Source: a virus (lineage: Duplodnaviria > Heunggongvirae > Uroviricota > Caudoviricetes). From it: a stretch of 11,508 nt of DNA. How positions within the stretch are numbered: position 1 is the first letter of the stretch; each line of letters opens with the position of its first letter. A model generated the notes under the pieces. The model saw only the letters and a list, made by a program, of their open reading frames with translations, did not search any database and was not told the DNA's origin. The stretch is taken from positions 1-11,508 of the IMG/VR virus record IMGVR_UViG_2681813225_000024; one strand, given 5' to 3'. Position numbers and translations under genes: made by a program. This document shows positions 1 to 11,508 of the stretch, piece after piece.

Positions 1-603
1 TTTCACACCTTCCAGCATGGTTTCGGGTTTTACCCCCTCATTCAAACGGGCTTTCCAGGCTTTGAAGGCTGCAGATTTTGAATTGCCACCAGCACGTTTG
101 GGGTATGCCAGCCATGCCTGCTCAAACTCCGGAGAGTATTCCGGTCGGTTTGAACGAACTCGCACAGACTCATCAGCAGATGCACCAACAGCTATTGGTT
201 CATTGACTGGTTCAAAAGAGTGACTGGTTCTGGGTGAATCTCCTGCACTACCCCCTGGTGCAACTCCTGCACTACCTGGTGAATTTGCTGCACCAGATAG
301 TGAATTATTTGCACTACCCCCTAGTGAATCTCCTGCACCATCCAGATGAAGGAGATAGATATTACTTGAGTTACCTTTTTCACCTTTCCGGGTGACTTTT
401 TTTACCAGCCCGGAATCACAAAGGGCCGCAATATGATTCATCACAGAACGTTTGCTAATCTCGCACTGATCAGCAATATGCTGGTAGCTGGGCCAGCACT
501 CACCCTGATCGCTGGCATTATCAGCCAGCTTGATCAGAACCAGTTTTCGCAATGGATTACCCACTCGAATTTTCATCGCTTTAACCATCAGCTCCATACT
601 CAT
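1..603 (-). CDS. Phage replication initiation protein, N-terminal helix-turn-helix domain plus Gly/Ser/Ala-rich linker; 3' end lies beyond window start (partial)
   Basis: Manual minus-strand translation from ATG at 603..601 is open to position 1 (201 codons, no stop); it is absent from the ORF track because no stop lies in the window. Begins MSMELMVKAMKIRVGNPLRKLVLIKLADNASDQGECWPSYQHIADQCEISKRSVMNHIAALCDSGLVKK, which resembles the HTH domain found at the N-terminus of phage replication initiators. ATG overlaps the upstream gene stop as ATGA (coupling). It is the last gene of the PR-like operon. Confidence 0.7.
   Translation of the reverse strand, partial: MSMELMVKAMKIRVGNPLRKLVLIKLADNASDQGECWPSYQHIADQCEISKRSVMNHIAALCDSGLVKKVTRKGEKGNSSNIYLLHLDGAGDSLGGSANNSLSGAANSPGSAGVAPGGSAGDSPRTSHSFEPVNEPIAVGASADESVRVRSNRPEYSPEFEQAWLAYPKRAGGNSKSAAFKAWKARLNEGVKPETMLEGVK
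225..350. repeat. Imperfect tandem repeats (~21-24 bp units) inside the replication gene, encoding a low-complexity linker (GDSLGGSANNSLSGAANSPGSAGVAPGGSAGDSP)
   Basis: Plus strand shows reiterated units such as ggtgaatctcctgcactaccccct / ggtgcaactcctgcactacct / ggtgaatttgctgcacca / agtgaatctcctgcacca; the reading frame is maintained through them. Confidence 0.6.
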
Positions 604-836
604 GCTGCACCTCCGAGATGCTTCATGTTTTTTCCGGAGCGAAAGGTTATAAGCGGCATACTGACGCGGTAATTACGGCCCAGCGGTTCACAAATCACCT
701 TCTGACATTCACGGTCAACCAGGCTAACACGTAGAACATGCCCTGCAGGCGTGGTGTACCACTGCCCAACTGTAGGAATTGATGTTTTTTTACGCTGAAA
801 TAAACGGTAAATATTGAGGATCAACGGATTAAGCAT
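600..836 (-). CDS. Hypothetical small phage protein (78 aa)
   Basis: ORF track; ATG at 836..834; its stop overlaps the replication gene ATG (ATGA) and its start overlaps the upstream gene stop (ATGCTTAA), giving translational coupling within the operon. No recognisable motif. Confidence 0.45.
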   Translation of the reverse strand: MLNPLILNIYRLFQRKKTSIPTVGQWYTTPAGHVLRVSLVDRECQKVICEPLGRNYRVSMPLITFRSGKNMKHLGGAA

Positions 837-1473
837 GACGATGCCCTCCGCTGATATTCAGGAGACGGTGAATATGAAAATTAGCCTTATCCGCCAGACG
901 AATACGTTCAGCCTGCAAGTTAAGAAGGGTTTCTACCAGAACCTGATGCGCCTGCGGATCCGAAAGAGTTACCTTGCGCAGAGCACGTAGTGCAGTTGTT
1001 ACATAACTGAGTTTATGTAAGTCTTCATCATTCAGACGAGTGAGGGCTGGGACAGTAGCCATGATGGCAGCCTCCTTGATCGGTGAAATACTTCCACCAC
1101 CGGAAACGCCAATTTCGCTGGTGGTGAACTGAACGGGGTTGGCGTAACCGGTGATCAAGGAAACCGGCGCATCTTTCGATGCCCCCGCCCAGCCCACCAT
1201 AACTTTGATGTGAGCAAATGCGGACGATAAAAAAGACGCTGGCGCGTCATATATCGCCTTGATCAATTCCAGGACGCCAATCCCGGCACCCGCTTTATAA
1301 GGTGCCTGAACAGTGTAACGTCCCGGAATGGCAGAATCAATGTGCTGGTGGTCCTTCACACTCAACAAAATCACGCCTGAATTTCCACAAAGGACTAAAG
1401 CACTCATGCGGGTAGTCTTTGCGAAGATAGATAACGCGCTGTGTTTCTGGTTCCCAACGAATAACATGGACAT
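829..1473 (-). CDS. Hypothetical phage protein; start uncertain (ORF opens at TTG 1518; ATG at 1473 has RBS-like AAGAGGG just upstream)
   Basis: ORF track 829..1518, 229 aa. Sequence looks protein-like (ALVLCGNSGVILLSV, GVSGGGSISPIKEAAIMATVPALTRL). Its 5' part overlaps the upstream 109-aa ORF out of frame, so the start or the gene integrity is unresolved. Confidence 0.4.
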   Translation of the reverse strand: MSMLFVGNQKHSALSIFAKTTRMSALVLCGNSGVILLSVKDHQHIDSAIPGRYTVQAPYKAGAGIGVLELIKAIYDAPASFLSSAFAHIKVMVGWAGASKDAPVSLITGYANPVQFTTSEIGVSGGGSISPIKEAAIMATVPALTRLNDEDLHKLSYVTTALRALRKVTLSDPQAHQVLVETLLNLQAERIRLADKANFHIHRLLNISGGHRHA

Positions 1474-1666
1474 AAAGCCCTCTTCCGTCACGAAACCAGC
1501 GGTTAAGTTCCCGCACAACTCGCCCCCCCACAGTCAGGTAAAGTTCTCTGTGGTTACTTACAGCCAGGTGATTTGGTAATCTGCATTCATGCCGTAACAA
1601 CAGGTGTTCAGCGACACTGACCACCAGCTGTTGCGACAAACGGTTATTTGCCGTTAAACTGTTCAT
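1337..1666 (-). CDS. Hypothetical phage protein (109 aa)
   Basis: ORF track; ATG at 1666..1664 overlaps the stop of the upstream CII-like gene (ATGA); GGAG-containing RBS about 10 nt upstream. No recognised family. Confidence 0.45.
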   Translation of the reverse strand: MNSLTANNRLSQQLVVSVAEHLLLRHECRLPNHLAVSNHRELYLTVGGRVVRELNRWFRDGRGLYVHVIRWEPETQRVIYLRKDYPHECFSPLWKFRRDFVECEGPPAH

Positions 1667-2226
1667 GCGTTAGTTTCTCCACAGACACAAAACGCCACGA
1701 CGCCCGGAGCTGCACACTCGCGGGCGTCACTCTTTTCTGGAGCGCAAAAGATTTTGTAGACCAGTGCTGCATGCTCTTGGAGCTTCGAAATTGACAGATA
1801 CAACTCATCATTAATTGCTGTCTGCTCGTGTGGCTCCACGACCCCATCTTCGATTGCCGAACGAATCTGCTTTGAGTAATTCCCGATCTGTTCGATGACT
1901 TCCAGCAGGCGCTGGTTTATATCGGCGTTCTCTACTTCCTCAATTTCAGGAAGCGATACGAACACCCCACCAGCAGACTGTGCGACAGCATCCGCAATGT
2001 AGTGAGTGCCAGCCGCGCGCTGTAAAACCATTGCCCATCCCAGCGGGAAAATCTGATCGCCATCGGCACGAAGGCGGTTAAATAATGCGTTCTCTGTTAC
2101 ATCCAGCCAGTCAGCTGCTTCAGCGTAACCACCCGGCAACGCTGCGATAGTTTTTCTGACAGCTTTCACGTACCACTCAGGCTGTTTTTCTACTTTCCAG
2201 TGATACTTACCCACGGTTAGCCTCAT
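1663..2226 (-). CDS. Putative CII-like / YdaT-like early regulatory protein (about 183-187 aa)
   Basis: ORF track; sits immediately downstream of the Cro-like gene, the position CII holds in lambdoid phages and YdaT holds after YdaS. Alternative GTG start at 2214 has GAGG 6 nt upstream. The family call rests on synteny and weak recollection, not on a verified motif. Confidence 0.5.
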   Translation of the reverse strand: MRLTVGKYHWKVEKQPEWYVKAVRKTIAALPGGYAEAADWLDVTENALFNRLRADGDQIFPLGWAMVLQRAAGTHYIADAVAQSAGGVFVSLPEIEEVENADINQRLLEVIEQIGNYSKQIRSAIEDGVVEPHEQTAINDELYLSISKLQEHAALVYKIFCAPEKSDARECAAPGVVAFCVCGETNA

Positions 2227-2257
2227 CGTTCTGTGGTTAAAAATTGAAGGTGTTCTG

Positions 2258-2458
2258 TTAATCTTTCGGATAGATATCCGGTCTTAAGTCAGATTTCGTA
2301 ATTGCACCTGACGTGCATTGCTCAAGTTTTTTCGCCAGCACAAAACTGGCTTTTTTATAACCATTGAAAACCAGCCGTAAGTAGCCAGGTGTTGAGCCAA
2401 CTTTTCCGGCCAACTCGCCCTGCTGTTCTTTGGTTAAAGAGTCCCAATACGCTTTCAT
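2258..2458 (-). CDS. Cro-like HTH regulator (YdaS/Cro family), 66 aa from ATG 2458
   Basis: ORF track frame 2258..2563; internal ATG at 2458 gives MKAYWDSLTKEQQGELAGKVGSTPGYLRLVFNGYKKASFVLAKKLEQCTSGAITKSDLRPDIYPKD, a typical small Cro/YdaS-type HTH. AAGG RBS about 10 nt upstream. Divergent from the CI-like gene across an operator-bearing intergenic region. Confidence 0.65.
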   Translation of the reverse strand: MKAYWDSLTKEQQGELAGKVGSTPGYLRLVFNGYKKASFVLAKKLEQCTSGAITKSDLRPDIYPKD

Positions 2459-2464
2459 ACAATA

Positions 2465-2531
2465 TGTACCTTCAGTATACATATTACATGATTGAAATGA
2501 ACCTTCAAGATACTTGTACCTTATCGGTACA
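2465..2531. promoter_or_regulatory. OR-like operator cluster: three 17-bp sites fitting TGTAC-N7-GTACA, with divergent promoters for cro-like and cI-like genes
   Basis: Sites read directly: 2465-2481 TGTACCTTCAGTATACA; 2498-2514 TGAACCTTCAAGATACT; 2515-2531 TGTACCTTATCGGTACA (perfect palindromic half-sites). They lie between the cro-like start (2458, minus) and the cI-like start (2549, plus). Confidence 0.5.
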
Positions 2532-2548
2532 AAGGTTTTAATTTCGTT

Positions 2549-3223
2549 ATGAAAACAATCCATGACATCCGGCGGTCTAACGCCAGAAACCTGAGAGATG
2601 GTGTTGGCGGAAATTCATCCTTTGCCACCATGATTGATCGCGAGCCAACCCAGACCAGTAGGTTTATGGGGGATGGCGCTACTAAAAATATCGGTGACAG
2701 CATGGCACGGCACATCGAAAAATGTTTCGACCTGCCTGTCGGATGGCTTGATCAAGAACACCAGACAACGAACATCACAAAAAAACCTGATGTTTCAATC
2801 ACTAACAAACAAATAACGTTAGTCCCTGTCATATCATGGGTACAGGCCGGAGCATGGAAAGAAGTTGGCTATTCTGAGGTTGATTTGAGCACAGCAGAAA
2901 CGTATCCCTGCCCTGTCCCCTGTGGCGAAATGACTTATATCTTGCGGGTGATTGGTGATTCAATGATTGATGAGTACCGCCCTGGAGACATGATTTTTGT
3001 TGATCCCGAAGTCCCTGCCTGCCACGGTGACGACGTTATTGCATTGATGCACGATACAGGCGAAACCACCTTCAAGCGATTGATAGAAGATGGAACACAG
3101 CGTTATCTCAAAGCATTAAACCCAAACTGGCCTGAGCCTTACATTAAGATTAACGGTAATTGCTCTATAATTGGTACAGTGATTTTCTCGGGAAAACCAA
3201 GAAGATACACAATAAAGGTCTAA
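2549..3223 (+). CDS. CI/LexA-like prophage repressor (N-terminal HTH, C-terminal S24 peptidase autocleavage domain), 224 aa
   Basis: ORF track. C-terminal region has the S24 hallmarks: GDSM (Ser nucleophile) in RVIGDSMIDEYRPGDMIFVD and a downstream Lys in TTFKRL. The N-terminus is HTH-like. Weak RBS, as is common for cI genes. Confidence 0.85.
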   Translation: MKTIHDIRRSNARNLRDGVGGNSSFATMIDREPTQTSRFMGDGATKNIGDSMARHIEKCFDLPVGWLDQEHQTTNITKKPDVSITNKQITLVPVISWVQAGAWKEVGYSEVDLSTAETYPCPVPCGEMTYILRVIGDSMIDEYRPGDMIFVDPEVPACHGDDVIALMHDTGETTFKRLIEDGTQRYLKALNPNWPEPYIKINGNCSIIGTVIFSGKPRRYTIKV

Positions 3224-3235
3224 TCAATATTTATG

Positions 3236-3260
3236 AACCTGCTTCGGCAGGTTTTTTTAT
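3236..3260 (+). terminator. Rho-independent terminator downstream of the repressor gene
   Basis: Stem ACCTGC (3237-3242) / GCAGGT (3247-3252), loop TTCG, followed by a T7 run (3252-3258). Confidence 0.7.
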
Positions 3261-3262
3261 AC

Positions 3263-3291
3263 TTGACAATGTACTCATGAGATACATAACG
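3263..3291 (+). promoter_or_regulatory. PL-like early-left promoter with overlapping OL-like operator
   Basis: Perfect -35 TTGACA at 3263-3268; weak -10 candidate CATAAC about 16 bp downstream. The 17-bp site TGTACTCATGAGATACA (3270-3286) has the same TGTAC-N7-ATACA architecture as the OR sites. Confidence 0.4.
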
Positions 3292-3708
3292 TATCCAAAA
3301 GAAACATGGGGCAGGCAAGATTCAAACAAAATTTGGTTGTAACACGGCGTATGGCACATGCGTCGTTAGCGGTCTGGGGACGTTAAAGGGGACAATCCAC
3401 TCCTTGCTCGGGCAAACAAACCAGGTAGCCGGAATGTGCAAGTCAATGATGATGCTGATAAGACGCCTAACCAGCGTGGCGATCCGGTTTGACGCCTGGG
3501 AAGAGACCAGGGTGCAACGATGAGGGCATTTATGGAGCCGCGACAAAGTGTGGTGCCGTAACTGGCTAAGTGCTCTCAGCGTTGTGGTCATCCGCGAAAT
3601 GGCGCGGCGGTAAGTATGGCTGGGTTACTCTTTCCCCGTTGAGGACACCGGATTGTCAGGTTGACCATACGCCTGAGTGACAACCCCACCACAACAGCCA
3701 CTGCTTTG

Positions 3709-3755
3709 GCGGTACCAGTTTGTACACTTGCTTCCGGCTGGTACCGCTCTTTTTA
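3709..3755 (+). terminator. Terminator-like hairpin in the early-left leader
   Basis: 10-bp stem GCGGTACCAG (3709-3718) / CTGGTACCGC (3738-3747) followed by TCTTTTT. Confidence 0.4.
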
Positions 3756-3756
3756 C

Positions 3757-3845
3757 AAAACAGAGAAGAGCATCACCGGACGACGGGCTCATAACCCAAT
3801 CCATCCGGGCGGCTGCCACCGCAGGTGTTCTTCTCTGTTTTGTGG
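3757..3845 (+). terminator. Second long hairpin (13-bp perfect inverted repeat at base) immediately upstream of the first early gene RBS
   Basis: AAAACAGAGAAGA (3757-3769) is exactly complementary to TCTTCTCTGTTTT (3829-3841), enclosing a 59-nt GC-rich segment; ends in a U-run. Confidence 0.35.
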
Positions 3846-3891
3846 AGAAACCAACCGACCTTGCAGGGTCGATATGATGAGGAGCAGCAAA

Positions 3892-4254
3892 ATGGCTAGC
3901 GAACGCAGTACTGATGTGCAGGCATTTATCGGGGAGTTGGACGGCGGCGTATTTGAAACCAAAATCGGCGCTGTTCTCAGTGAAGTCGCTTCCGGTGTGA
4001 TGAACACGAAAACCAAAGGTAAGGTCTCACTCAACCTGGAAATCGAACCATTTGATGAGAACCGTGTGAAAATCAAACACAAACTCTCATATGTTCGCCC
4101 GACTAACCGCGGGAAAATTTCCGAAGAAGACACCACCGAAACGCCGATGTATGTCAATCGCGGTGGTCGCCTGACTATTCTGCAGGAAGACCAGGGACAA
4201 TTACTGACTCTTGCCGGTGAACCTGACGGAAAACTCCGCGCAGCAGGTCATTAA
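3892..4254 (+). CDS. yfdP: YfdP-like conserved prophage early protein (120 aa)
   Basis: ATG at 3892 preceded by GAGGAG with 7-nt spacing; lies in the ORF track frame 3661..4254. Length and position directly upstream of a YfdQ-like gene match the CPS-53 yfdPQRS order as I recall it. Symbol assigned by synteny, not verified. Confidence 0.5.
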   Translation: MASERSTDVQAFIGELDGGVFETKIGAVLSEVASGVMNTKTKGKVSLNLEIEPFDENRVKIKHKLSYVRPTNRGKISEEDTTETPMYVNRGGRLTILQEDQGQLLTLAGEPDGKLRAAGH

Positions 4255-4318
4255 TACGTTATTAATAAACTGATTATTTATCGCATCACTGAATATCTTT
4301 ATATAGTGAGGACTTATT

Positions 4319-5143
4319 ATGTCTCAGAACTTAGACGCAACCGCAATTAATCAAATCCATGCCCTTATTTCTGCTCAGGGTGTTAATGAAATTATCAGTA
4401 AGATTGGTGCCGATGCTGTGGCATTGCCTGAGAATTTCCGCATTCATGATCTGGAAAAATTTAATTTAAATCGTTTCCGTTTCCGTGGTGCGCTTTCCAC
4501 TGCCAGCATCGATGACTTTACCCGTTATTCTAAAGATCTTGCAGATGAAGGTACCCGCTGCTTTATCGATGCCGATAATATGCGTGCCGTCAGTGTGCTT
4601 AACCTGGGTACTATTGATGAGCCAGGTCACGCAGATAACACTGCCACTCTCAAACTGAAAAAGACAGCACCGTTCTCTGCTCTGTTATCTGTTAATGGCG
4701 AGCGTAACTCCCAGAAGTCACTGGCAGAATGGATTGAAGACTGGGCCGACTACCTTGTGGGCTTTGATGCTAATGGTGACGCTATTCAGGCAACAAAAGC
4801 GGCTGCGGCAGTCCGTAAAATCACGATTGAAGCAAACCAGACCGCTGATTTTGAAGATAATGACTTCAGCGGCAAACGCTCCCTGATGGAGTCTGTCGAA
4901 GCGAAGACCAAAGACATTATGCCAGTGGCATTTGAATTTAAATGCGTTCCGTTTGAAGGCCTTAAAGAACGTCCGTTTAAATTACGCCTCAGCATTATCA
5001 CTGGCGATCGTCCTGTACTGGTTCTGCGCATTATTCAGCTGGAAGCGGTGCAGGAAGAAATGGCTAACGAATTTCGTGATCTGCTTGTTGAGAAATTTAA
5101 AGACAGCAAAGTAGAAACCTTTATTGGTACTTTCACCGCCTGA
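4319..5143 (+). CDS. yfdQ: YfdQ-like protein (DUF2303 family), 274 aa
   Basis: ORF track; AGGA RBS about 9 nt upstream; size and sequence character consistent with E. coli CPS-53 YfdQ; followed by YfdR- and YfdS-like genes in the same order. Confidence 0.65.
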
Positions 5144-5155
5144 TTTCATTACTGC

Positions 5156-5177
5156 AAATGCCCCTGCGGGGGCATTT
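5156..5177 (+). terminator. Terminator-like hairpin after the yfdQ-like gene
   Basis: 9-bp stem AAATGCCCC (5156-5164) / GGGGCATTT (5169-5177), loop TGCG; the U-tract is short, so this may be an attenuator or RNA stability element. Confidence 0.35.
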
Positions 5178-5270
5178 ATGGAAACATAATTTACTCAATA
5201 ATCGCCAGATGGTGATGGCTTCCTTTTACCAGAATTCAGCGCGGTGCAGCGCATATACGTGGAGAACAAA

Positions 5271-5807
5271 ATGTCATTTATTAAAACTTTTTCCGGGAAG
5301 CATTTTTATTATGACAGGATAAATAAAGACGACATCGTGATTAACGATATCGCGGTTTCCCTTTCAAATATCTGTCGCTTTGCAGGACATCTTTCACACT
5401 TCTACAGCGTCGCCCAACATGCGGTGCTTTGCAGCCAGCTGGTACCGCAGGAATTTGCTTTTGAAGCGTTAATGCATGATGCAACAGAAGCATATTGCCA
5501 GGACATCCCCGCACCACTGAAACGCCTTCTTCCTGACTATAAACGGATGGAAGAAAAAATAGACGCCGTAATCCGTGAGAAATACGGGTTACCTCCTGTT
5601 ATGAGCACGCCAGTGAAATATGCCGATCTCATTATGCTGGCAACCGAACGCCGCGATCTCGGGCTTGATGATGGCTCTTTCTGGCCTGTACTGGAAGGTA
5701 TCCCGGCGACAGAGATGTTCAAAGTTATTCCACTGTCACCAGGCCATGCCTACGGGATGTTTATGGAACGTTTTAACGAGTTATCGGAGTTACGCAAATG
5801 CGCATGA
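5271..5807 (+). CDS. yfdR: HD-domain phosphohydrolase, YfdR-like 5'-deoxynucleotidase (178 aa)
   Basis: ATG at 5271 with GGAGA RBS 5 nt upstream (track ORF opens at GTG 5244). HD motif context in AQHAVLCSQL...ALMHDATEAYCQDIP. Size matches YfdR. Confidence 0.65.
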   Translation: MSFIKTFSGKHFYYDRINKDDIVINDIAVSLSNICRFAGHLSHFYSVAQHAVLCSQLVPQEFAFEALMHDATEAYCQDIPAPLKRLLPDYKRMEEKIDAVIREKYGLPPVMSTPVKYADLIMLATERRDLGLDDGSFWPVLEGIPATEMFKVIPLSPGHAYGMFMERFNELSELRKCA

Positions 5808-6160
5808 ATGTTTTCGAAATGGAAGGGTTTCTTCGCGGGAAATGTGTACCGCGAGATCTGAAAGTGAACGAAACAAATGCTGAGTACCTGGTACGTAAAT
5901 TCGATGCGCTTGAAGCTAAATGTACGGCACTGGAAAACAAAATAATACCAGTGTCAGCTGAACTGCCACCAGCAAATGAAAGTGTTCTGTTATTTGATGC
6001 TAACGGAGAAGGCTGGCTAATTGGCTGGCGTTCTCTCTGGTACACCTGGGGACAAAAAGAAACCGGAGAATGGCAGTGGACATTTCAGATCGGGGACCTT
6101 GAAAACGTCAATATCACTCACTGGGCAGTAATGCCGAAAGCACCGGAGAATAAGAAATGA
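5798..6160 (+). CDS. yfdS: YfdS-like protein (120 aa)
   Basis: ORF track; start overlaps the yfdR-like stop; GGAG 8 nt upstream; size and synteny match YfdS. Confidence 0.55.
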   Translation: MRMNVFEMEGFLRGKCVPRDLKVNETNAEYLVRKFDALEAKCTALENKIIPVSAELPPANESVLLFDANGEGWLIGWRSLWYTWGQKETGEWQWTFQIGDLENVNITHWAVMPKAPENKK

Positions 6161-6360
6161 GCGTGATAAAAACTCATACAGGAATTGTTATCACCCGAGA
6201 CGGTCCGCAGGTAAAAAAACTGCACCAGACAAAGCGGATGTGGGTCGTCGGAAAAAACGAGTTTTACCGCAAAGAAACCGGACGCCGCCACTTTGCAGAA
6301 AATACGCGCCGCCGACTGCTGATCGACAGCATCAAGCCTATCGAGGTGAAGCATGTTTAA
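6157..6360 (+). CDS. Hypothetical small basic protein (67 aa)
   Basis: ORF track; ATGA overlap with the preceding stop; GGAG 8 nt upstream. Confidence 0.45.
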   Translation: MSVIKTHTGIVITRDGPQVKKLHQTKRMWVVGKNEFYRKETGRRHFAENTRRRLLIDSIKPIEVKHV

Positions 6361-6592
6361 ACAGAACGAAAAATCTATCGCTCAAATTGCTGAGTATATC
6401 CCGCGTGCGTGCCGGGGTATGCAGTTGCAGGAAGCCAAAGCGCGCCTGGAGAAAAAAATTGCGCTCTATATCGATGACGGCTGTGATGCTGCCGTTCTTA
6501 ACGCAGCGTTCGCGCCAGCTCTTAACAGTCATACGCGGGAGTCTTTTTTTTCGCGCATCGCAGCGCAGATCCGTAAAGGAGGCAACCAGTGA
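6353..6592 (+). CDS. Hypothetical protein (79 aa)
   Basis: ORF track; start overlaps the previous stop; GAGG RBS upstream; protein-like composition. Confidence 0.45.
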   Translation: MFKQNEKSIAQIAEYIPRACRGMQLQEAKARLEKKIALYIDDGCDAAVLNAAFAPALNSHTRESFFSRIAAQIRKGGNQ

Positions 6593-7143
6593 GCGAGATT
6601 AACTATCAGGCTCTGCGACTGGCGGCAGAAAATGCAACACCAGGCGAATGGTGTGCTGATGACTACCATGGAGTAATTGCCGATGCCGGACTGAACGCCA
6701 ATTACTACATAGCATCATGCTCAGGACCAGATAATCGCGCCAATAAACGATTCATAGCCGCCGCCAATCCTGCCACCGTCTTGGCGCTGCTGGATGAGCT
6801 GGAAGCAGCAGAGAAGCGAAACGCTGAATTACAAAGCGAGAATGCATACATCCGCAACCGGTACAAAGAACTGGACCTATTAATCGGGAAAAATATTCTG
6901 GTCATGCAGGCTGCCATTATCGAATGGCAGGCAACTGGCGACGCTAAGAGCGGACTGGCATGGATTTATAACACACTGTTTGGCCCTGGCGAATTACCGG
7001 ACGAATCTGAGAAAGATGCTCAGGCCTACTTTAATCGCAAATATGCACCGATTGACGAAAAGCTTATGGCGCTTCACAAGTGGTTTTGGGAACAAAGTGA
7101 AGCCGAGCGCGCCGCCGCCAACATTGGTGTGAAGGGGAAGTGA
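6589..7143 (+). CDS. Ead/Ea22-like family protein (184 aa)
   Basis: ORF track; GTG start overlapping the upstream stop (GTGA) with AAAGGAGG 7 nt upstream. N-terminal LRLAAENATPGEW and a coiled-coil-like middle region are typical of Ea22-like early-left proteins. Confidence 0.6.
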   Translation: MSEINYQALRLAAENATPGEWCADDYHGVIADAGLNANYYIASCSGPDNRANKRFIAAANPATVLALLDELEAAEKRNAELQSENAYIRNRYKELDLLIGKNILVMQAAIIEWQATGDAKSGLAWIYNTLFGPGELPDESEKDAQAYFNRKYAPIDEKLMALHKWFWEQSEAERAAANIGVKGK

Positions 7144-7144
7144 G

Positions 7145-7336
7145 ATGAACGGACAAATCTCAATTGTTCGACCGGGAGCATGTGACGATTGCGAGATACG
7201 AATGATTATTCGTCTGGCGATGGGGAAAACAATAACTGCTCTCATTACTCCAGAAAATCTCGCATTAGCATTAACAGGAAAGTCAGACCTGCCAGTAGAG
7301 CTAAAGCTGCGAAATGTTGAGATTAAGGTGAAATAG
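7145..7336 (+). CDS. Hypothetical small protein (63 aa)
   Basis: ORF track; starts 1 nt after the upstream stop; purine-rich RBS. Confidence 0.4.
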   Translation: MNGQISIVRPGACDDCEIRMIIRLAMGKTITALITPENLALALTGKSDLPVELKLRNVEIKVK

Positions 7337-7338
7337 CT

Positions 7339-8346
7339 ATGACCACTATTACCAAAGAGCGACTGCTGACAATCAAGCAGTGGCGCGAAACATACGGACC
7401 TGGTAGCAACGTTGTACTGCCAGCAGAAGAAGCGGAAGAACTGGCACGGATTGCACTGGCATCATTGGAAGCAGATCCAGTTAAACGAGTTAACTCAGAT
7501 CAGATGCACCGAGTCTGCTTAGAAGCTAATCGCTATTTAGATAAATATGACGCGATGGCGAAAGAGGTAAATAAGTTGCTTGGACGCATCGCCCCGCCAG
7601 CGCCAGTATTTAACGGCGAATACGGTGACGCATATCAGGGCGCTCGTGAAGACCTGTCCATCTGGAAACGGCGAGCGCTTGAAGCTGATGAGCACGTTCG
7701 GCGACTGGAGCAAATCAATGACCACATGGTGAAAGAGGCGCAGGGAGAATCACGCATGGGCGAGCCTGTAATACGTGAGCCAGCACCGGTAGTGCCTGAA
7801 GAAGCAACTCCGGAAAACGTAGAAATGCTCTCTGGCTATGTTTCAACGTACAAATTAACCGATAGCGAGCGCGATATTGCTGCCGAAATATGGAACGCCT
7901 GCCGCGCCGCCATGCTTCAGGGTAGCCAACCTGTAAGCCAAACTTACAAGTTTCCAGTTAATACACCTTGCCAGGATGCGCCAGCCCATATCTGGCTGCA
8001 AACAGCTGGAGTATGGCCAGAAGATGGCGAGTTAAGCGAATTAACGTGGTGCAGCCACAATCAGCACCATGATGACACGCTATATGTTCGAGCTGACTTG
8101 GTAAATGGCAACTCTCCGGGAACTCCGGATAGTTGGATAAGCTGTAGTGATCAAATGCCTGAAAAGGGCCAGAACGTGCTTATTTCGGTGAATTTCGATA
8201 GCTCTCTGGTTGAACCGCTAATATGCTCCGCACGCTATACCGGAAGAACCTTTCGGCGCGGAGATGCAACGATTAAGCCGGGTAATGGTATTGAGCAAGC
8301 AACTCACTGGATGCCGCTACCGGAACCGCCGCAGGAGGTGAAGTGA
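7339..8346 (+). CDS. DUF551 domain-containing phage protein (335 aa)
   Basis: ORF track; C-terminal HWMPLPEPP is characteristic of DUF551 proteins in enterobacterial prophages; AAGGTGA RBS. Confidence 0.6.
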   Translation: MTTITKERLLTIKQWRETYGPGSNVVLPAEEAEELARIALASLEADPVKRVNSDQMHRVCLEANRYLDKYDAMAKEVNKLLGRIAPPAPVFNGEYGDAYQGAREDLSIWKRRALEADEHVRRLEQINDHMVKEAQGESRMGEPVIREPAPVVPEEATPENVEMLSGYVSTYKLTDSERDIAAEIWNACRAAMLQGSQPVSQTYKFPVNTPCQDAPAHIWLQTAGVWPEDGELSELTWCSHNQHHDDTLYVRADLVNGNSPGTPDSWISCSDQMPEKGQNVLISVNFDSSLVEPLICSARYTGRTFRRGDATIKPGNGIEQATHWMPLPEPPQEVK

Positions 8347-8918
8347 TGAACAACTTAATGATCGACCTTGAGACGATGGGGAAAAATAAGGATGCACCGA
8401 TCGTTTCCATTGGCGCGGTGTTCTTCACTCCAGAAACCGGAGACATCGGACAAGAATTCTATACGGTTGTTAGCCTGGAAAGTGCTATGGGGCAAGGAGC
8501 TACACCTGACGGCGATACCATCCTGTGGTGGTTGAAACAAAGCCCTGAAGCACGAGCTGCAATCTGTATTGATGATACTTTGTCGATCAGCGATGCTCTC
8601 TCAGAACTAAATCATTTCATTAACCGGCACGCAGCCAATACGAAATATTTAAAAGTCTGGGGTAACGGGGCCACCTTCGACAACGTAATTTTACGTGGAG
8701 CTTATGAGCGAGCAGGACAAATCTGCCCGTGGGCATACTGGAATGACCACGATGTACGCACGATCGTTACGCTTGGGCGTTCCATCGGATTCGACCCCAA
8801 AATGGACATGCCTTTCGATGGCGAACGGCACAACGCCCTGGCCGATGCCCGTCATCAGGCAAAATATGTTTCCGCTATCTGGCAGAAATTAATTCCTGCC
8901 ACCAGCACAGAATTATGA
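8346..8918 (+). CDS. DnaQ-like (DEDD) 3'-5' exonuclease, phage-type (190 aa)
   Basis: ORF track 8343..8918; ATG at 8346 overlaps the upstream stop, with GGAGGTGA RBS. N-terminal MIDLETMG matches exo motif I (D-x-E); later acidic and His residues fit the DEDDh pattern. Confidence 0.65.
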   Translation: MNNLMIDLETMGKNKDAPIVSIGAVFFTPETGDIGQEFYTVVSLESAMGQGATPDGDTILWWLKQSPEARAAICIDDTLSISDALSELNHFINRHAANTKYLKVWGNGATFDNVILRGAYERAGQICPWAYWNDHDVRTIVTLGRSIGFDPKMDMPFDGERHNALADARHQAKYVSAIWQKLIPATSTEL

Positions 8919-8954
8919 TTTTCCCGGGTGCAGCCGGTTTTGATGGAGAAAATT

Positions 8955-9236
8955 ATGAACACCTTGTTTTTACTGATGGCTGAATTCAATACCCCTAACA
9001 TTGAACTCTCAGCAGTTAGCCAAAAGTACTTTGGCATGAGTCCAGCCACGGCAGAAGCAAAAGCAAACGCTTGTAAGTTGCCCGTTCCAACATATCGCAT
9101 CGGCACATCACAAAAAGCAAAACGTTGCATCAATATTCAGGATCTTGCGGAATACATAGACAAAAGACGAGAAGAAGGACGTATCGAGTGGGAACAGGTC
9201 AGAACAAGCAAACAGAAGGGCAAAGAACATCACTAA
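8955..9236 (+). CDS. PrtN/AlpA-like small DNA-binding regulator, possibly excisionase-like (93 aa from ATG 8955)
   Basis: ORF track frame 8928..9236; ATG at 8955 with GGAG 7 nt upstream. MNTLFLLMAEF...PVPTYRIGTSQKAKRCINIQDLAEYIDKRREEG resembles pyocin-activator PrtN family proteins. Last gene before the bidirectional terminator. Confidence 0.55.
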   Translation: MNTLFLLMAEFNTPNIELSAVSQKYFGMSPATAEAKANACKLPVPTYRIGTSQKAKRCINIQDLAEYIDKRREEGRIEWEQVRTSKQKGKEHH

Positions 9237-9240
9237 AGAA

Positions 9241-9264
9241 AAAACCCGCCTAAAGGCGGGTTTT
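9241..9264. terminator. Bidirectional rho-independent terminator
   Basis: AAAACCCGCC-TAAA-GGCGGGTTTT; GC stem flanked by A-run and T-run, so it works on both strands. Ends the plus-strand early operon and the convergent minus-strand small ORF. Confidence 0.8.
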
Positions 9265-9283
9265 CAAAAAGCACCAGCTATGA

Positions 9284-9457
9284 TCATGCTGCTTTGCGAC
9301 GACGAAGCTTACCCTGCTGCTCTTTACCAGAGACAGTAGCGTGAGTGAACGCATTAGGAGCAGCCTTCATCAGAACTTCAACAGCAGCACCCATACCTGC
9401 GAATGCTTTCATTGTGTCGAACTTAACCTGTGGCTTGGTTGCTTTTTGATCTTTCAT
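9284..9457 (-). CDS. Small hypothetical protein, 57 aa (MKDQKATKPQVKFDTMKAFAGMGAAVEVLMKAAPNAFTHATVSGKEQQGKLRRRKAA)
   Basis: Not in the ORF track (under 60 aa); found by manual translation. ATG at 9457..9455 with GGGAG 6 nt upstream; stop TGA at 9286..9284 just before the bidirectional terminator. Lys-rich N-terminus, hydrophobic core, basic C-terminal tail. Confidence 0.5.
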   Translation of the reverse strand: MKDQKATKPQVKFDTMKAFAGMGAAVEVLMKAAPNAFTHATVSGKEQQGKLRRRKAA

Positions 9458-9653
9458 AGAAAACTCCCGAGACAGTAAAGGCGTCTCTAACCCTTTCTTT
9501 AAAGCTAGCTTGTTTCGCTAACTTATGCCAATCGATCATGTCGATTGGTGACATCGTTTCTTAGTAGTTTAAGCACAAAACGACTGCCATAGATGTACCT
9601 TTAAGGTAATCTGGACGGGTATCCTACAATTTGTAGACCCTTCTCGTCTATAC

Positions 9654-10190
9654 CTACTGAGCAAATTTAAGAAAGATATCCTGCAGCTCATCAATGACTG
9701 CCGACATCACATAACCGCACTGTTCCATGTGGAAACCAAAAGACTCGTAATACTGCACCAGTTCTGGTACTGGCTCTACAATGTGGACAACTTTACATTC
9801 AACAGCTTTACAAAATATAAAAGCACTCATAAGAGTGAGTAAAACCATGCGCCCTTTCAATGGGTGAGATTCATCTTCTCTAGAAAACCTTTCGATCATA
9901 TGGATACGAAAGATGTTTTCTTCAACCCCATAAACACAAATTGCTGCTCCTGATGGTATTCCCTGAACCCGACCTTGCTGAACAAGTTTTATACAGAACT
10001 CATACTTTTCTCTGGAGTTGCCATAGGTACTTAACGCATAGTCCCATTCAAGCTCACCATAGCCACCACACAGAATCTTGTAATCATCATCACTGAGCGG
10101 ACCAACAGCAAGAGGTAAGCCGACATGATCAATAATCAACTGGATATTGTTACGTACTGATTGACCTATCTCGTCCAGGGTAAGCATCAT
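9654..10190 (-). CDS. Hypothetical protein (178 aa) in AT-rich cargo; weak resemblance to a GNAT-like acyltransferase fold
   Basis: ORF track; tandem ATGs at 10190 and 10187 with GAGG upstream. Loose fit to a GNAT C-terminal pattern (IHMIERF...LKGRMVLLTLMSAFIFCKA...YYESFGF) but no clear Q/R-x-x-G-x-G/A acetyl-CoA motif. Visibly more AT-rich than the phage early genes. Confidence 0.5.
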   Translation of the reverse strand: MMLTLDEIGQSVRNNIQLIIDHVGLPLAVGPLSDDDYKILCGGYGELEWDYALSTYGNSREKYEFCIKLVQQGRVQGIPSGAAICVYGVEENIFRIHMIERFSREDESHPLKGRMVLLTLMSAFIFCKAVECKVVHIVEPVPELVQYYESFGFHMEQCGYVMSAVIDELQDIFLKFAQ

Positions 10191-10219
10191 GGCCTCTCAA
10201 GCGGAACACTAAAAGTCGC

Positions 10220-10225
10220 ATTATA
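10220..10225 (-). promoter_or_regulatory. Candidate -10 hexamer (TATAAT on minus strand) for the 178-aa gene
   Basis: Plus ATTATA at 10220-10225 is TATAAT on the minus strand, about 29 nt upstream of the ATG; no convincing -35. Confidence 0.3.
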
Positions 10226-10739
10226 TCTCATTCTTAAGCCGCGTATGGATTACACCTTGAAATGAAAACGCCGGGTTCCCAATAGGCTCCCACAGAGTGT
10301 ATAACTACTTGTTTTTCAAAAACGGTACATCCTATCGAGCATTGGTGCAACGCTAAACCGACCACTCCAGTGAACGTCAGTTTTTTCAGGCATTGCGCTG
10401 GTTTGGTTGATTTTTTGCATTTCAGAATTACCGTGCATTTTCAAATGTAGAGATTATTTTATCAATATATCATGGGGTTATGTTATTCAGCTTCACTGTT
10501 CAGGAGGCTCAATAGCGGGGTACTATACCATAACAACAGGAAGCGCCTGTCTCATTGCAAAAGAAAATTGAGATCCTCTCAAGGCATGAAGCTCTCACGA
10601 AGTGATGGAAATAATCTTATTAGCCGTTAACTTTGTTAAGGCCAATGATAAACAATCCAGGTTCGACGATAAATAAAAAATCACACATTAAACTCTGGTG
10701 ATATATCTCCCTGCTAATAGCATTGATAGAGAAAAAAGA

Positions 10740-10757
10740 ACCCAATAAATATTGGGT
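10740..10757 (-). terminator. Rho-independent terminator of the 235-aa gene
   Basis: Hairpin ACCCAAT-AAAT-ATTGGGT; on the minus strand it is followed by TCTTTTTTCTC, and it lies about 45 nt downstream of the stop at 10801-10803. Confidence 0.6.
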
Positions 10758-10800
10758 CCTTTTATATAATGCCTTCCATACTATCGAAGAACTTCACATA

Positions 10801-11508
10801 TTATTTCTCCGATTTAACCCCGAACAAATCATAAATTAATTTAGAAGTGTCTGTAAGTATTTTAATCTCTTCCTTTGAGGTTGGGTCAAACGACTTCGCG
10901 AAGCTAATTAATTGTGGTGCAGCATCTCGCATTTTGCTTAAAATATCAGGATCGAGCGTTCCTTCATTCACCAGATGTGACATCTTATCCAGATAGCCAT
11001 CAAAATTCATTTCTCCCCCATCAGCCAGACGCTTCATCTCTCCCAAGTACTTCTTCATATCACGTTGAGATAATTTTTCAAACTGAGCTTTCAGGTAGCT
11101 CTCATTATTTTCATTAATATACACTGTTTCTGATAAATCTGCGTAGGCACTAGAATATGAAAGTGAAATTAACAGCGAAGCAAATAATTTTAAGCTGTTG
11201 TCATCATGTTCCTGGCAGGCATTAACAAACGTTAAAAAACCAGAACCTATTGCTTGAAAATGTATATTCGCTAAAGGTTCATTATCCTTAGATTCCTCAT
11301 AAAATAGCTGAACCGTGGAGGGAAGGCCATTCTTAGTTTCTACATCAAAAGTACATTGTTCAATGGGAGTCGCATCTTTATTATCCCCAGGATTACATAT
11401 ACTATTAATCGCGAAATGAAAAATAGCCCGGTCAACAACTGATGCAATAAAGTCACGATCGTTTAAATCCTCATCAGTGCAATCGTCAATATACTTATTG
11501 ACCCACAT
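10801..11508 (-). CDS. Hypothetical acidic protein (at least 235 aa), AT-rich, unknown function; 5' end may extend beyond the window
   Basis: ORF track; the first in-window ATG sits exactly at the window edge (11508..11506), so the true start is uncertain. Long uninterrupted frame with coherent protein-like composition despite low GC; own terminator downstream. Confidence 0.5.
   Translation of the reverse strand: MWVNKYIDDCTDEDLNDRDFIASVVDRAIFHFAINSICNPGDNKDATPIEQCTFDVETKNGLPSTVQLFYEESKDNEPLANIHFQAIGSGFLTFVNACQEHDDNSLKLFASLLISLSYSSAYADLSETVYINENNESYLKAQFEKLSQRDMKKYLGEMKRLADGGEMNFDGYLDKMSHLVNEGTLDPDILSKMRDAAPQLISFAKSFDPTSKEEIKILTDTSKLIYDLFGVKSEK

Follow-up and report, generated by a model that had tools for sequence, protein, structure and literature searches.

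A conserved leader RNA and a candidate pL promoter precede the yfdP-yfdQ-yfdR-yfdS cassette of an Escherichia coli lambdoid prophage

Introduction

Which function do four genes serve that stand at the head of a lambdoid early operon, and what sets their expression? We took up this question for the yfdP-yfdQ-yfdR-yfdS cassette at positions 3892-6160 of a Caudoviricetes sequence, IMG/VR record IMGVR_UViG_2681813225_000024, from which we analyzed positions 1 to 11,508; the window is this whole stretch of 11,508 nucleotides (nt). Our preferred explanation, to which we give a probability of about 0.55 as a whole, is that the region forms the leading block of a CI-repressed early-left (pL) operon in an SfV/CPS-53-type lambdoid prophage at dusA, and that the YfdQ, YfdR and YfdS part of this block stops initiation at the host's oriC. 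The cassette itself consists of already known genes and is a matter of ordinary annotation. The lead worth following is a family of structured leader RNAs, one member of which lies just upstream of yfdP.

The cassette is intact and very common in E. coli

The four genes are close relatives of those in the CPS-53 prophage of E. coli K-12 MG1655; the identities given here are global protein identities.

3892-4254, plus strand: yfdP, 120 amino acids (aa), PF27127; 99.2% identical to K-12 YfdP
4319-5143, plus strand: yfdQ, 274 aa, DUF2303 (309.7 bits in Pfam); 99.3% identical to K-12 YfdQ
5271-5807, plus strand: yfdR, 178 aa, HD-domain phosphohydrolase, PHROG 318; 97.8% identical to K-12 YfdR
5798-6160, plus strand: yfdS-like gene for a DUF551 protein of 120 aa; 95.8% identical to K-12 YfdS

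We took the ATG at 5271 as the start of yfdR, the mechanical open reading frame (ORF) beginning at a GTG at 5244. The yfdS gene shares 10 nt with yfdR and 4 nt with the ORF that follows. Over the 3.2 kb queried (3200-6400), the window matches E. coli chromosome NZ_CP027591 exactly. RefSeq annotates a lambdoid prophage there, adjoining a dusA fragment, a DUF2713 gene and zur, and names yfdP, a YfdQ family protein, the yfdR 5'-deoxynucleotidase and a hypothetical protein at the same coordinates. The ORFs, RefSeq and K-12 identities of 96-99% thus bear out the positions and gene names assigned to 3892-6160 by the first-pass annotation, which a model had made from the letters and their ORF translations. 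Of 5426 complete E. coli genomes, 4727 match some part of the 3.2-kb stretch, and 999 have at least 80% of it at one place; the genes also occur in phages mEp460, cdtI and SfV and in Stx phages, Stx2c included. Given these gene identities and genome counts, we conclude that the cassette is real and very common.

The cassette follows a repressor, a terminator and a candidate pL

The first-pass annotation had placed the cassette at the head of the early-left operon, where lambda would have N. The sequence upstream of yfdP agrees with both points, as it contains a repressor gene, its terminator and a candidate promoter overlain by an operator:

2464-2482 and 2514-2532, strand not applicable: two operator copies of the pattern WTGTAC-N7-RTACAW (oR), found by pattern search in the cro-cI intergenic region
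2549-3223, plus strand: CI-type repressor gene ymfK, LexA family with Peptidase_S24 (Pfam E-value 1.5e-26; RefSeq)
3235-3254, plus strand: intrinsic terminator of the repressor transcript, an 8-bp stem followed by a TTTTTATACTT tail, strong in the terminator scan
3263-3292, plus strand: candidate pL, with a -35 element TTGACA at 3263-3268 and the operator OL at 3269-3287

OL, with the sequence ATGTACTCATGAGATACAT, is a third copy of WTGTAC-N7-RTACAW; it abuts TTGACA and spans the promoter spacer. The three sites in the immunity region compare with 0.32 matches expected by chance. The -10 element, TAACGT at 18-nt spacing, is weak or uncertain. The interval from the candidate pL to yfdP has no gene in RefSeq, and inspection of the plus-strand ORFs of at least 20 aa over 3255-3895 found no N-like protein. 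The upstream repressor recurs in related loci. We compiled a census of 88 of these, 80 from a one-genome-per-species collection and 8 reached through more distant YfdQ homologues, and 48 of the 88 have an S24 repressor homologue on the same strand at a distance of 1.3-3.3 kb upstream.

YfdR is an HD protein with a reported DnaA partner

In an alignment with the HD protein 2gz4 that covers YfdR residues 19-175 (E-value 2e-13), H50, H69-D70 and D118 of YfdR fall on the conserved VAQH, HDA and KxAD positions of 2gz4. YfdR also matches PHROG 318 with an E-value of 6e-110, and both RefSeq and PHROGs label it a deoxyribonucleoside 5'-monophosphate (dNMP) phosphatase. Scores against the curated models fall below their cut-offs: 24.3 against 25.9 for PF12917, 17 against 22.5 for PF13023, and 19.9 against 122 for NF003009 (PRK03826, YfbR). 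Judged by sequence, YfdR is an HD protein and not a YfbR equivalog. Of its earlier description as an HD-domain deoxynucleotidase, the HD residues hold good and the YfbR-type assignment does not reach the cut-offs.

What has been demonstrated for the 98%-identical K-12 YfdR is binding to DnaA. Noguchi & Katayama 2016 (PMC4776307) obtained yfdQ-yfdR-yfdS-yfdT as genes that, in multicopy, suppress over-initiation. The minimal multicopy set that blocks oriC initiation consists of yfdQ and yfdR together with either yfdS or yfdT, with yfdP dispensable (PMC4776307), a result restated in eLife 2025. Purified K-12 YfdR binds domain I of DnaA, for which DnaA Phe46 is important, and extracts over-supplied with Yfd proteins inhibit oriC replication in vitro (PMC4776307). 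The authors propose a role in the growth of the ancestral phage and point to SfV orf29-31 (PMC4776307). The window's YfdR is identical to the K-12 protein at 174 of 178 residues. Its YfdS matches PHROG 583 with an E-value of 1e-81 and reaches the DUF551 model (PF04448) marginally, with 22.2 bits against a cut-off of 22.0.

These reports, together with the solved structure of a YfdQ homologue (PDB 9o7m, discussed below), overtake the first-pass view that the cassette is uncharacterised apart from YfdR. They also bear on the function proposed there, namely that YfdR acts early and mainly as a 5'-deoxynucleotidase on dNMPs and so remodels nucleotide pools, the other genes being unrelated passengers. 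The intact HD metal-binding residues, the phosphatase name in RefSeq and PHROGs, and the weak matches to YfbR-like models all speak for such an enzyme. However, those matches stay under the cut-offs of Pfam (24.3 vs 25.9) and NCBIfam (19.9 vs 122), YfdR has nucleotide affinities far below YfbR's, and its function, in the words of the DnaA study, 'remains elusive' (PMC4776307). A specific protein partner, DnaA, has been demonstrated (PMC4776307), and destruction of dNMPs would counter phage DNA synthesis. We therefore regard pool remodelling as unlikely and keep to inhibition of oriC initiation as the preferred account of the YfdQ, YfdR and YfdS part.

A structured RNA of a widespread family lies upstream of yfdP

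Between the candidate pL and yfdP, the plus strand folds into an elaborate and conserved structure.

3736-3873, plus strand: three-way-junction leader RNA (fold, covariation and covariance model)

The stretch 3700-3895 folds at -87.8 kcal/mol (z = -7.6). The element is built of a long P1 helix, a P2 with an invariant apical hairpin, a variable P3, and a P4 hairpin at 3856-3871 just before the yfdP Shine-Dalgarno sequence; in the window, the P2 cap reads GGG-CUCAUAA-CCC followed by AAUC. Across more than 25 genome-derived loci from many genera, the region retains 70-97% nucleotide identity, while the adjacent YfdQ proteins are only 57-70% identical; for the element at 3736-3873, values between many genera were 80-93%. 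RNAalifold, run on 25 sequences, returned a three-way junction of 39 pairs with 97.6% of cells paired. Compensatory change occurs in 14 of these pairs, against 6.6 +/- 1.5 in shuffled alignments (0 of 500 reached this value) and at most 6 in slid controls, and many pairs alternate between U-A and U-G. A covariance model built for the element finds a single copy in the window and scores 128.7 bits on the plus strand and 35.4 on the minus strand, from which we conclude that the RNA is read in the yfdP direction.

The family extends beyond this cassette. Weaker copies were found with the covariance model upstream of yfdP in Yersinia, Serratia, Rahnella and other loci. Phage P1 (NC_005856) carries two copies, at 69708-69848 and 70005-70083, upstream of tciA-tciB-tciC-trnI-ban. 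Both lie within ORFs annotated plp and upl, on the other strand, which leads us to ask whether plp and upl are genuine genes. At least 120 viral contigs with the element turned up in a search for the P1-type loop; it often begins there directly behind the 3' end of a tRNA or behind a terminator-like hairpin. The genes that follow vary: a TerB-like tciA in 37 of 120, a 78-aa membrane protein in 14, and an apparent RdgC, named by eye from its sequence, in 8. When five subtypes were aligned without the model, 19 of 26 pairs showed compensatory change. The apical hairpin GGG-NUCAUAN-CCC + AAUC is nearly invariant in the family, some members having the loop CUCAUUC.

One part of the element resembles a known RNA. 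Positions 3784-3797, the 14-mer CGGGCTCATAACCC, repeat the anticodon arm of the initiator tRNA gene metY letter for letter. A tRNA or tRNA-like reading was nonetheless rejected: ARAGORN finds no tRNA gene in the window, RF00005 gives no match at E <= 1, and the 14-mer is all that is shared. Homology to HK022 put was also rejected, with covariance-model scores of at most 9.3 bits in the HK022 immunity region and a different architecture and position. A cmscan against Rfam 15 gave no match at E <= 1 within 3300-3900 or at the P1 copies.

Tentatively, and at slightly less than even odds, we propose that this 100-130 nt element represents an undescribed family of structured phage RNAs in which a CAU anticodon arm is copied. 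In cis, it may influence the expression of varied accessory genes through processing, stability, translation or read-through, possibly via a host factor that reads that arm. Should it prove functional, the early operons of temperate phages, Shiga-toxin phages and P1 among them, would contain a regulatory element of a new kind.

A second conserved hairpin follows yfdQ

A second structure closes the other end of yfdP-yfdQ.

5156-5179, plus strand: conserved terminator-like hairpin with the short U tract AUUUAU, 13 nt past the yfdQ stop codon (fold)

Its 9-bp stem pairs AAAUGCCCC with GGGGCAUUU around a UGCG loop, and 5 of the 9 pairs are G-C. The hairpin that the first-pass annotation had drawn at 5156-5177 is real and slightly longer. 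The terminator scan did not call it, and its tail is limited to AUUUAU; better U runs follow the hairpin in some homologues, such as GGCGGCAUUUUUAU in Morganella. A comparable hairpin is predicted a few bases past the yfdQ stop in most loci examined, among them most of those without yfdR and several distant ones from Vibrio, Photobacterium, Marinobacter and Hahella; in a few distant loci, no clear hairpin follows yfdQ.

In an alignment of 25 sequences from different genera, 94.8% of cells are paired and both sides change in 6 of 10 pairs. The covariation score is 0.456, compared with 0.157 in shuffles (0 of 500 as high) and at most 0.104 in slid controls. Frequent G-U pairs point to an RNA of the plus strand. 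In our reading, the hairpin closes the yfdPQ module as a weak terminator or as a 3' stabiliser, and its conservation and covariation across genera fit the internal regulation that had been suggested for this site. With the leader RNA on one side and this hairpin on the other, yfdP-yfdQ is framed by two conserved, covarying RNA structures, which suggests control after transcription starts.

YfdP and YfdQ form an old pair to which yfdR and yfdS were added

A YfdQ profile scan of viral contigs gave only E. coli loci of 99-100% identity and so added little diversity; a scan of genome contigs provided the useful set. YfdP lies directly upstream of YfdQ in 87 of the 88 loci, and the single exception is cut by the end of its contig. 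YfdR follows YfdQ in 61 loci, all labelled Enterobacterales except two whose label is doubtful, and YfdS is present after it in 6. The remaining 27 have yfdP-yfdQ without yfdR; such pairs occur in prophages of Xanthomonas, Vibrio, Marinobacter, Photobacterium and Hahella and in metagenomic phages. The single conserved cassette of the first-pass annotation thus resolves into parts. The yfdP-yfdQ genes are an old obligate pair, yfdR is an Enterobacterales add-on, and yfdS is a rare and variable one. YfdP and YfdQ should accordingly be studied together, and apart from YfdR.

What kind of proteins are they? YfdQ matches DUF2303 (PF10065) over residues 7-272 of 274, with 309.7 bits against a cut-off of 26.6, and 59 columns are invariant among 41 sequences of 57-75% identity. 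All YfdP homologues listed in a precomputed table carry PF27127; our local Pfam copy, which is without the PF27127 model, gave no match for YfdP. The AlphaFold2 (AF2) model of YfdP (predicted local distance difference test score, pLDDT, 74) has a helix and a three-stranded sheet, and that of YfdQ has a pLDDT of 77. Neither model has a significant match in a PDB fold library that predates 9o7m (best E-values 0.05 for YfdQ and 0.025 for YfdP), and a fold search of a viral library with YfdQ returned only other DUF2303 proteins.

PDB entry 9o7m, entitled 'YfdQ Protein', does match YfdQ, with E-values of 1e-44 from the single sequence and 9e-59 from a profile. Its 36 chains have one sequence, which shares 99% identity with a Xanthomonas phage MET23-P3 protein; our literature search found no paper for the entry. 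In MET23-P3, yfdP-yfdQ lies upstream of genes for ERF, YqaJ and SSB, and a Ro60/TROVE-like gene is nearby.

Such neighborhoods are frequent. In distant phages, the pair often adjoins genes for RecT and YqaJ, for ERF, YqaJ and SSB, or for an exonuclease (Rv2179c-like) and SSB. This raises the possibility that YfdP-YfdQ is a recombination or repair accessory: an annealing or end-binding function, or a Gam/Abc-type (anti-RecBCD) nuclease inhibitor. The 36 identical chains of 9o7m would fit a large homo-oligomer of the sort that many annealing proteins form, and deletion of yfdQ in K-12 causes mild sensitivity to methyl methanesulfonate (MMS) and H2O2, according to the passage of PMC4776307 that cites this result. 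Yet complete and separate recombination modules co-occur with the pair, on which ground Genome Res 2025 considers YfdP and YfdQ unlikely to be recombination proteins. Against the same idea, neither protein shows fold likeness to Rad52, RecT, ERF or another solved structure in the library without 9o7m. We think this role distinctly improbable. The narrower idea of YfdQ as an annealing protein, suggested by beta-beta-beta-alpha repeats in its model, was dropped on the coexistence with ERF and RecT and the missing fold match.

The putative pL leader is a mosaic that ends in a terminator-like hairpin

Between the candidate promoter and the leader RNA lie two further features.

3293-3708, plus strand: mosaic untranslated leader (nucleotide comparisons; no gene in RefSeq; fold z only -1.7)
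3709-3756, plus strand: T1, a terminator-like hairpin GGCGGUACCAG...CUGGUACCGC followed by UCUUUUUAC, with a U5 tract (fold)

Segment A of the mosaic (3331-3587) shares about 80% identity with DNA that carries no annotation and flanks tRNA genes, both in phage P1 (the trnI-ban interval) and in a Uetakevirus. For segment B (3581-3703), the match, at about 86% identity, is to the sequence immediately before DicF in Rac-like phages, namely HannyBb and a phage deposited as an Actinobacillus phage; an Rfam scan found no DicF in the window itself. A coding reading of the cI-yfdP gap (3224-3891) was rejected, the motif region having compensatory pairs and indels of lengths not divisible by three. Two reverse ORFs are annotated in this gap in mEp460 and none in RefSeq. 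Inspection likewise removed a conserved upstream ORF over P4 (MEK...), whose frame is not kept between subtypes. In a Klebsiella prophage, about 1.2 kb without called genes separates the repressor from yfdP and ends in the same leader RNA, so that long untranslated pL leaders seem typical of this phage group.

An alignment shows an equivalent of T1 in other genera. Its CGCTCTTTTTACAA could be read as the boxA of an N-nut site; we rejected this, as the motif is the U tract of T1, is missing from other subtypes and is accompanied by no N-like ORF. Measured against the lambda-type combination of an arginine-rich N with boxA-boxB, the leader yielded neither a boxB nor an N gene, and YfdP is predicted to be folded. 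By eye, GGCGGTAC in the T1 stem resembles the RfaH ops element. No convincing promoter was found inside or after T1.

The same interval has been described from its other strand. About 59 nt of the opposite strand, 3689-3747, match the 5' part of small RNA 17 (sRNA-17), published from E. coli K1 RS218, and the supplement of PMC7719688 lists CP027591, the window's source strain, as a 'degenerative' copy. The sRNA-17 5' end, read off the paper's alignment, lies near 3751, from where the RNA runs leftwards, away from the leader motif. It thus stems from the same intergenic region of mEp460-like prophages, but from the opposite strand and with only ~59 nt in the window. When a resistance cassette took the place of sRNA-17, yfdP rose about 96-fold and yfdR rose as well (PMC7719688). 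We suspect a cis effect, either a polar effect of the chloramphenicol-resistance (CmR) cassette or the loss of T1.

A proposed mechanism and the evidence against it

From these observations we infer the native lytic role of the block, its route of induction and what YfdP and the two RNA elements do. The block would be a composite of three parts: yfdP-yfdQ with its own 5' leader RNA and post-yfdQ hairpin, then yfdR, then YfdS. In the lysogen, CI at OL would silence it; yfdP and yfdR are reported as near-silent there, with 0.5 and 0 reads (PMC7719688). Upon induction, the S24-type repressor would be inactivated and pL would fire, transcripts would cross a leader of about 600 nt, and the proteins would appear early. 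YfdR would then bind DnaA domain I on the Phe46 surface used by DiaA and DnaB, and together with YfdQ and YfdS would shut off initiation at oriC, a take-over of host replication. Any dNMP phosphatase activity of YfdR would be secondary. YfdP-YfdQ would have a separate, older function, and the leader RNA and the post-yfdQ hairpin would set how much transcript is made, kept or translated.

Several points weigh against this explanation. Its chief weakness is that the replication phenotype is known from multicopy or overexpression only, while deletion of yfdQRST leaves initiation and hydroxyurea resistance unchanged; the authors themselves allow that the replication effect may be an artefact, and their pull-downs suggest that YfdQ, YfdS and YfdT have no high affinity for YfdR or DnaA (PMC4776307). 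The wide occurrence of yfdP-yfdQ without yfdR means that the pair must have a function of its own, which the DnaA account does not explain. Upstream, T1 lies between pL and yfdP, no antiterminator was identified, and the passage of transcripts past T1 is unexplained. Finally, the promoter scan of the window does not call the candidate pL, which has no -10 element of good quality, and on both grounds we count the pL assignment as probable rather than observed.

If the DnaA effect is an overexpression artefact, as its discoverers allow (PMC4776307), YfdP-YfdQ might instead neutralise an immune system or another host process. The pair is widespread in temperate phages of many genera, and its fold has no known relatives in our searches. 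Phages often place anti-defence genes first in an early operon, and yfdP-yfdQ is first in this one. Such a counter-defence or take-over role has no experimental link, whereas the binding of YfdR to DnaA in vitro is direct and residue-specific (PMC4776307). PADLOC models gave no match for the cassette proteins, in a library that covers defence and not anti-defence proteins. We rate this role as rather unlikely.

The same lack of a deletion phenotype (PMC4776307) would suit decaying, functionless prophage cargo kept by hitch-hiking, as would the silence of the genes in the lysogen (PMC7719688) and the cryptic state of CPS-53 in K-12. Conservation has already largely refuted this reading, which we hold to be barely credible: all reading frames are intact, the invariant columns of YfdQ and the pairing with YfdP in 87 of 88 loci extend across genera, the flanking RNA structures show compensatory evolution, and the genes are present in the functional phages SfV, mEp460 and cdtI and in Stx phages. 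An early block that acts on host replication remains our preferred explanation.

Neighboring genes and other features of the window

The cassette is followed by the rest of the operon.

6157-9236, plus strand: rest of the early-left gene run (ORF list, RefSeq, Pfam)

In order, this run contains two small ORFs, an Ea22-like gene, a small ORF, a 335-aa DUF551 protein, a 3'-5' exonuclease and a PrtN-type excisionase. All genes up to the excisionase are on the same strand and many overlap; the cro-like ymfT and the cII-like ymfL are on the minus strand of the window. The 335-aa ORF (7339-8346, plus strand) is continuous here, with a YfdT-like N-terminus and a DUF551 C-terminus. RefSeq splits it into a 'partial' pseudogene and a DUF551 gene in the record that matches the window exactly over 3200-6400, and this annotation may be wrong.

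Further along, a 178-aa gene lies on the minus strand at 9654-10190, and a dusA 5' fragment at about 10334-10438 marks the junction between prophage and host. By comparison with mEp460, the att site lies between this reverse gene and the integrase, so the integrase should sit at the far end of the prophage. G+C content drops to 36-44% from about 9250 on. At the other end of the window, C4 antisense RNA (82.3 bits) and isrK (64.2 bits) match above their Rfam gathering scores at 1117-1204 and 1229-1305, both on the minus strand, with a weak c4-a1b1 target match at 1266-1318. This region is a P1/P7-type immI-like antisense module in the rightward operon and overlaps an annotated 'ash family' gene.

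Comparison with known systems

Structured RNAs ahead of the first early-left gene are familiar from the HK022 put site and from the lambda nutL and N-leader RNase III hairpin, and in this respect the element at 3736-3873 is like them. HK022 put is about 70 nt long, forms two stem-loops just downstream of pL and has a similar copy after pR. The element described here differs in being 100-130 nt long, in forming a three-way junction that lies past a terminator-like hairpin, about 470 nt from the candidate pL, and in occurring once in the window. Neither the boxB nor the N gene of lambda was identified at this locus.

A different precedent is the thrS operator of E. coli, a mimic of a tRNA anticodon arm in an mRNA leader. 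Both thrS-type mimics and the leader RNA copy an anticodon arm in a leader hairpin, here through 14 nt of metY. Unlike those mimics, the leader RNA has a loop that varies within its family, related copies precede unrelated genes and tRNA-finding tools are silent; its binding partner is only conjectured.

YfdR has the H...HD...D motif in common with E. coli YfbR and with Agrobacterium Atu1052 (PDB 2gz4). It differs from YfbR in staying under the cut-offs of YfbR-type models, in its reported low substrate affinity and in an additional protein-binding role. In outcome, YfdR resembles SirA of Bacillus subtilis and lambda P, both of which act on DnaA. Lambda P inhibits host initiation while serving phage replication and binds domain III of DnaA, not domain I (PMC4776307). 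The likeness is one of outcome, with no sequence relationship expected; YfdR is an HD-domain protein and requires YfdQ together with YfdS or YfdT in vivo.

At the level of the whole locus, yfdP-yfdQ-yfdR-yfdS-yfdT of K-12 CPS-53 (KpLE1) and orf32-orf28 of SfV, which encode the YfdP-T homologues, have the same gene order as the window. Unlike K-12, the window has no yfdT right after yfdS; small ORFs, Ea22 and the 335-aa DUF551 protein with its YfdT-like N-terminus follow instead. The immunity region and the leader RNA are gone from K-12, which has only 23 nt ahead of yfdP in common with the window. SfV has orf33 in place of leader segments A and B. Its cI, annotated as repressor, has the same length and position as the window's, a terminator follows cI at the same place, and the 190 nt upstream of yfdP are 97% identical to those of the window.

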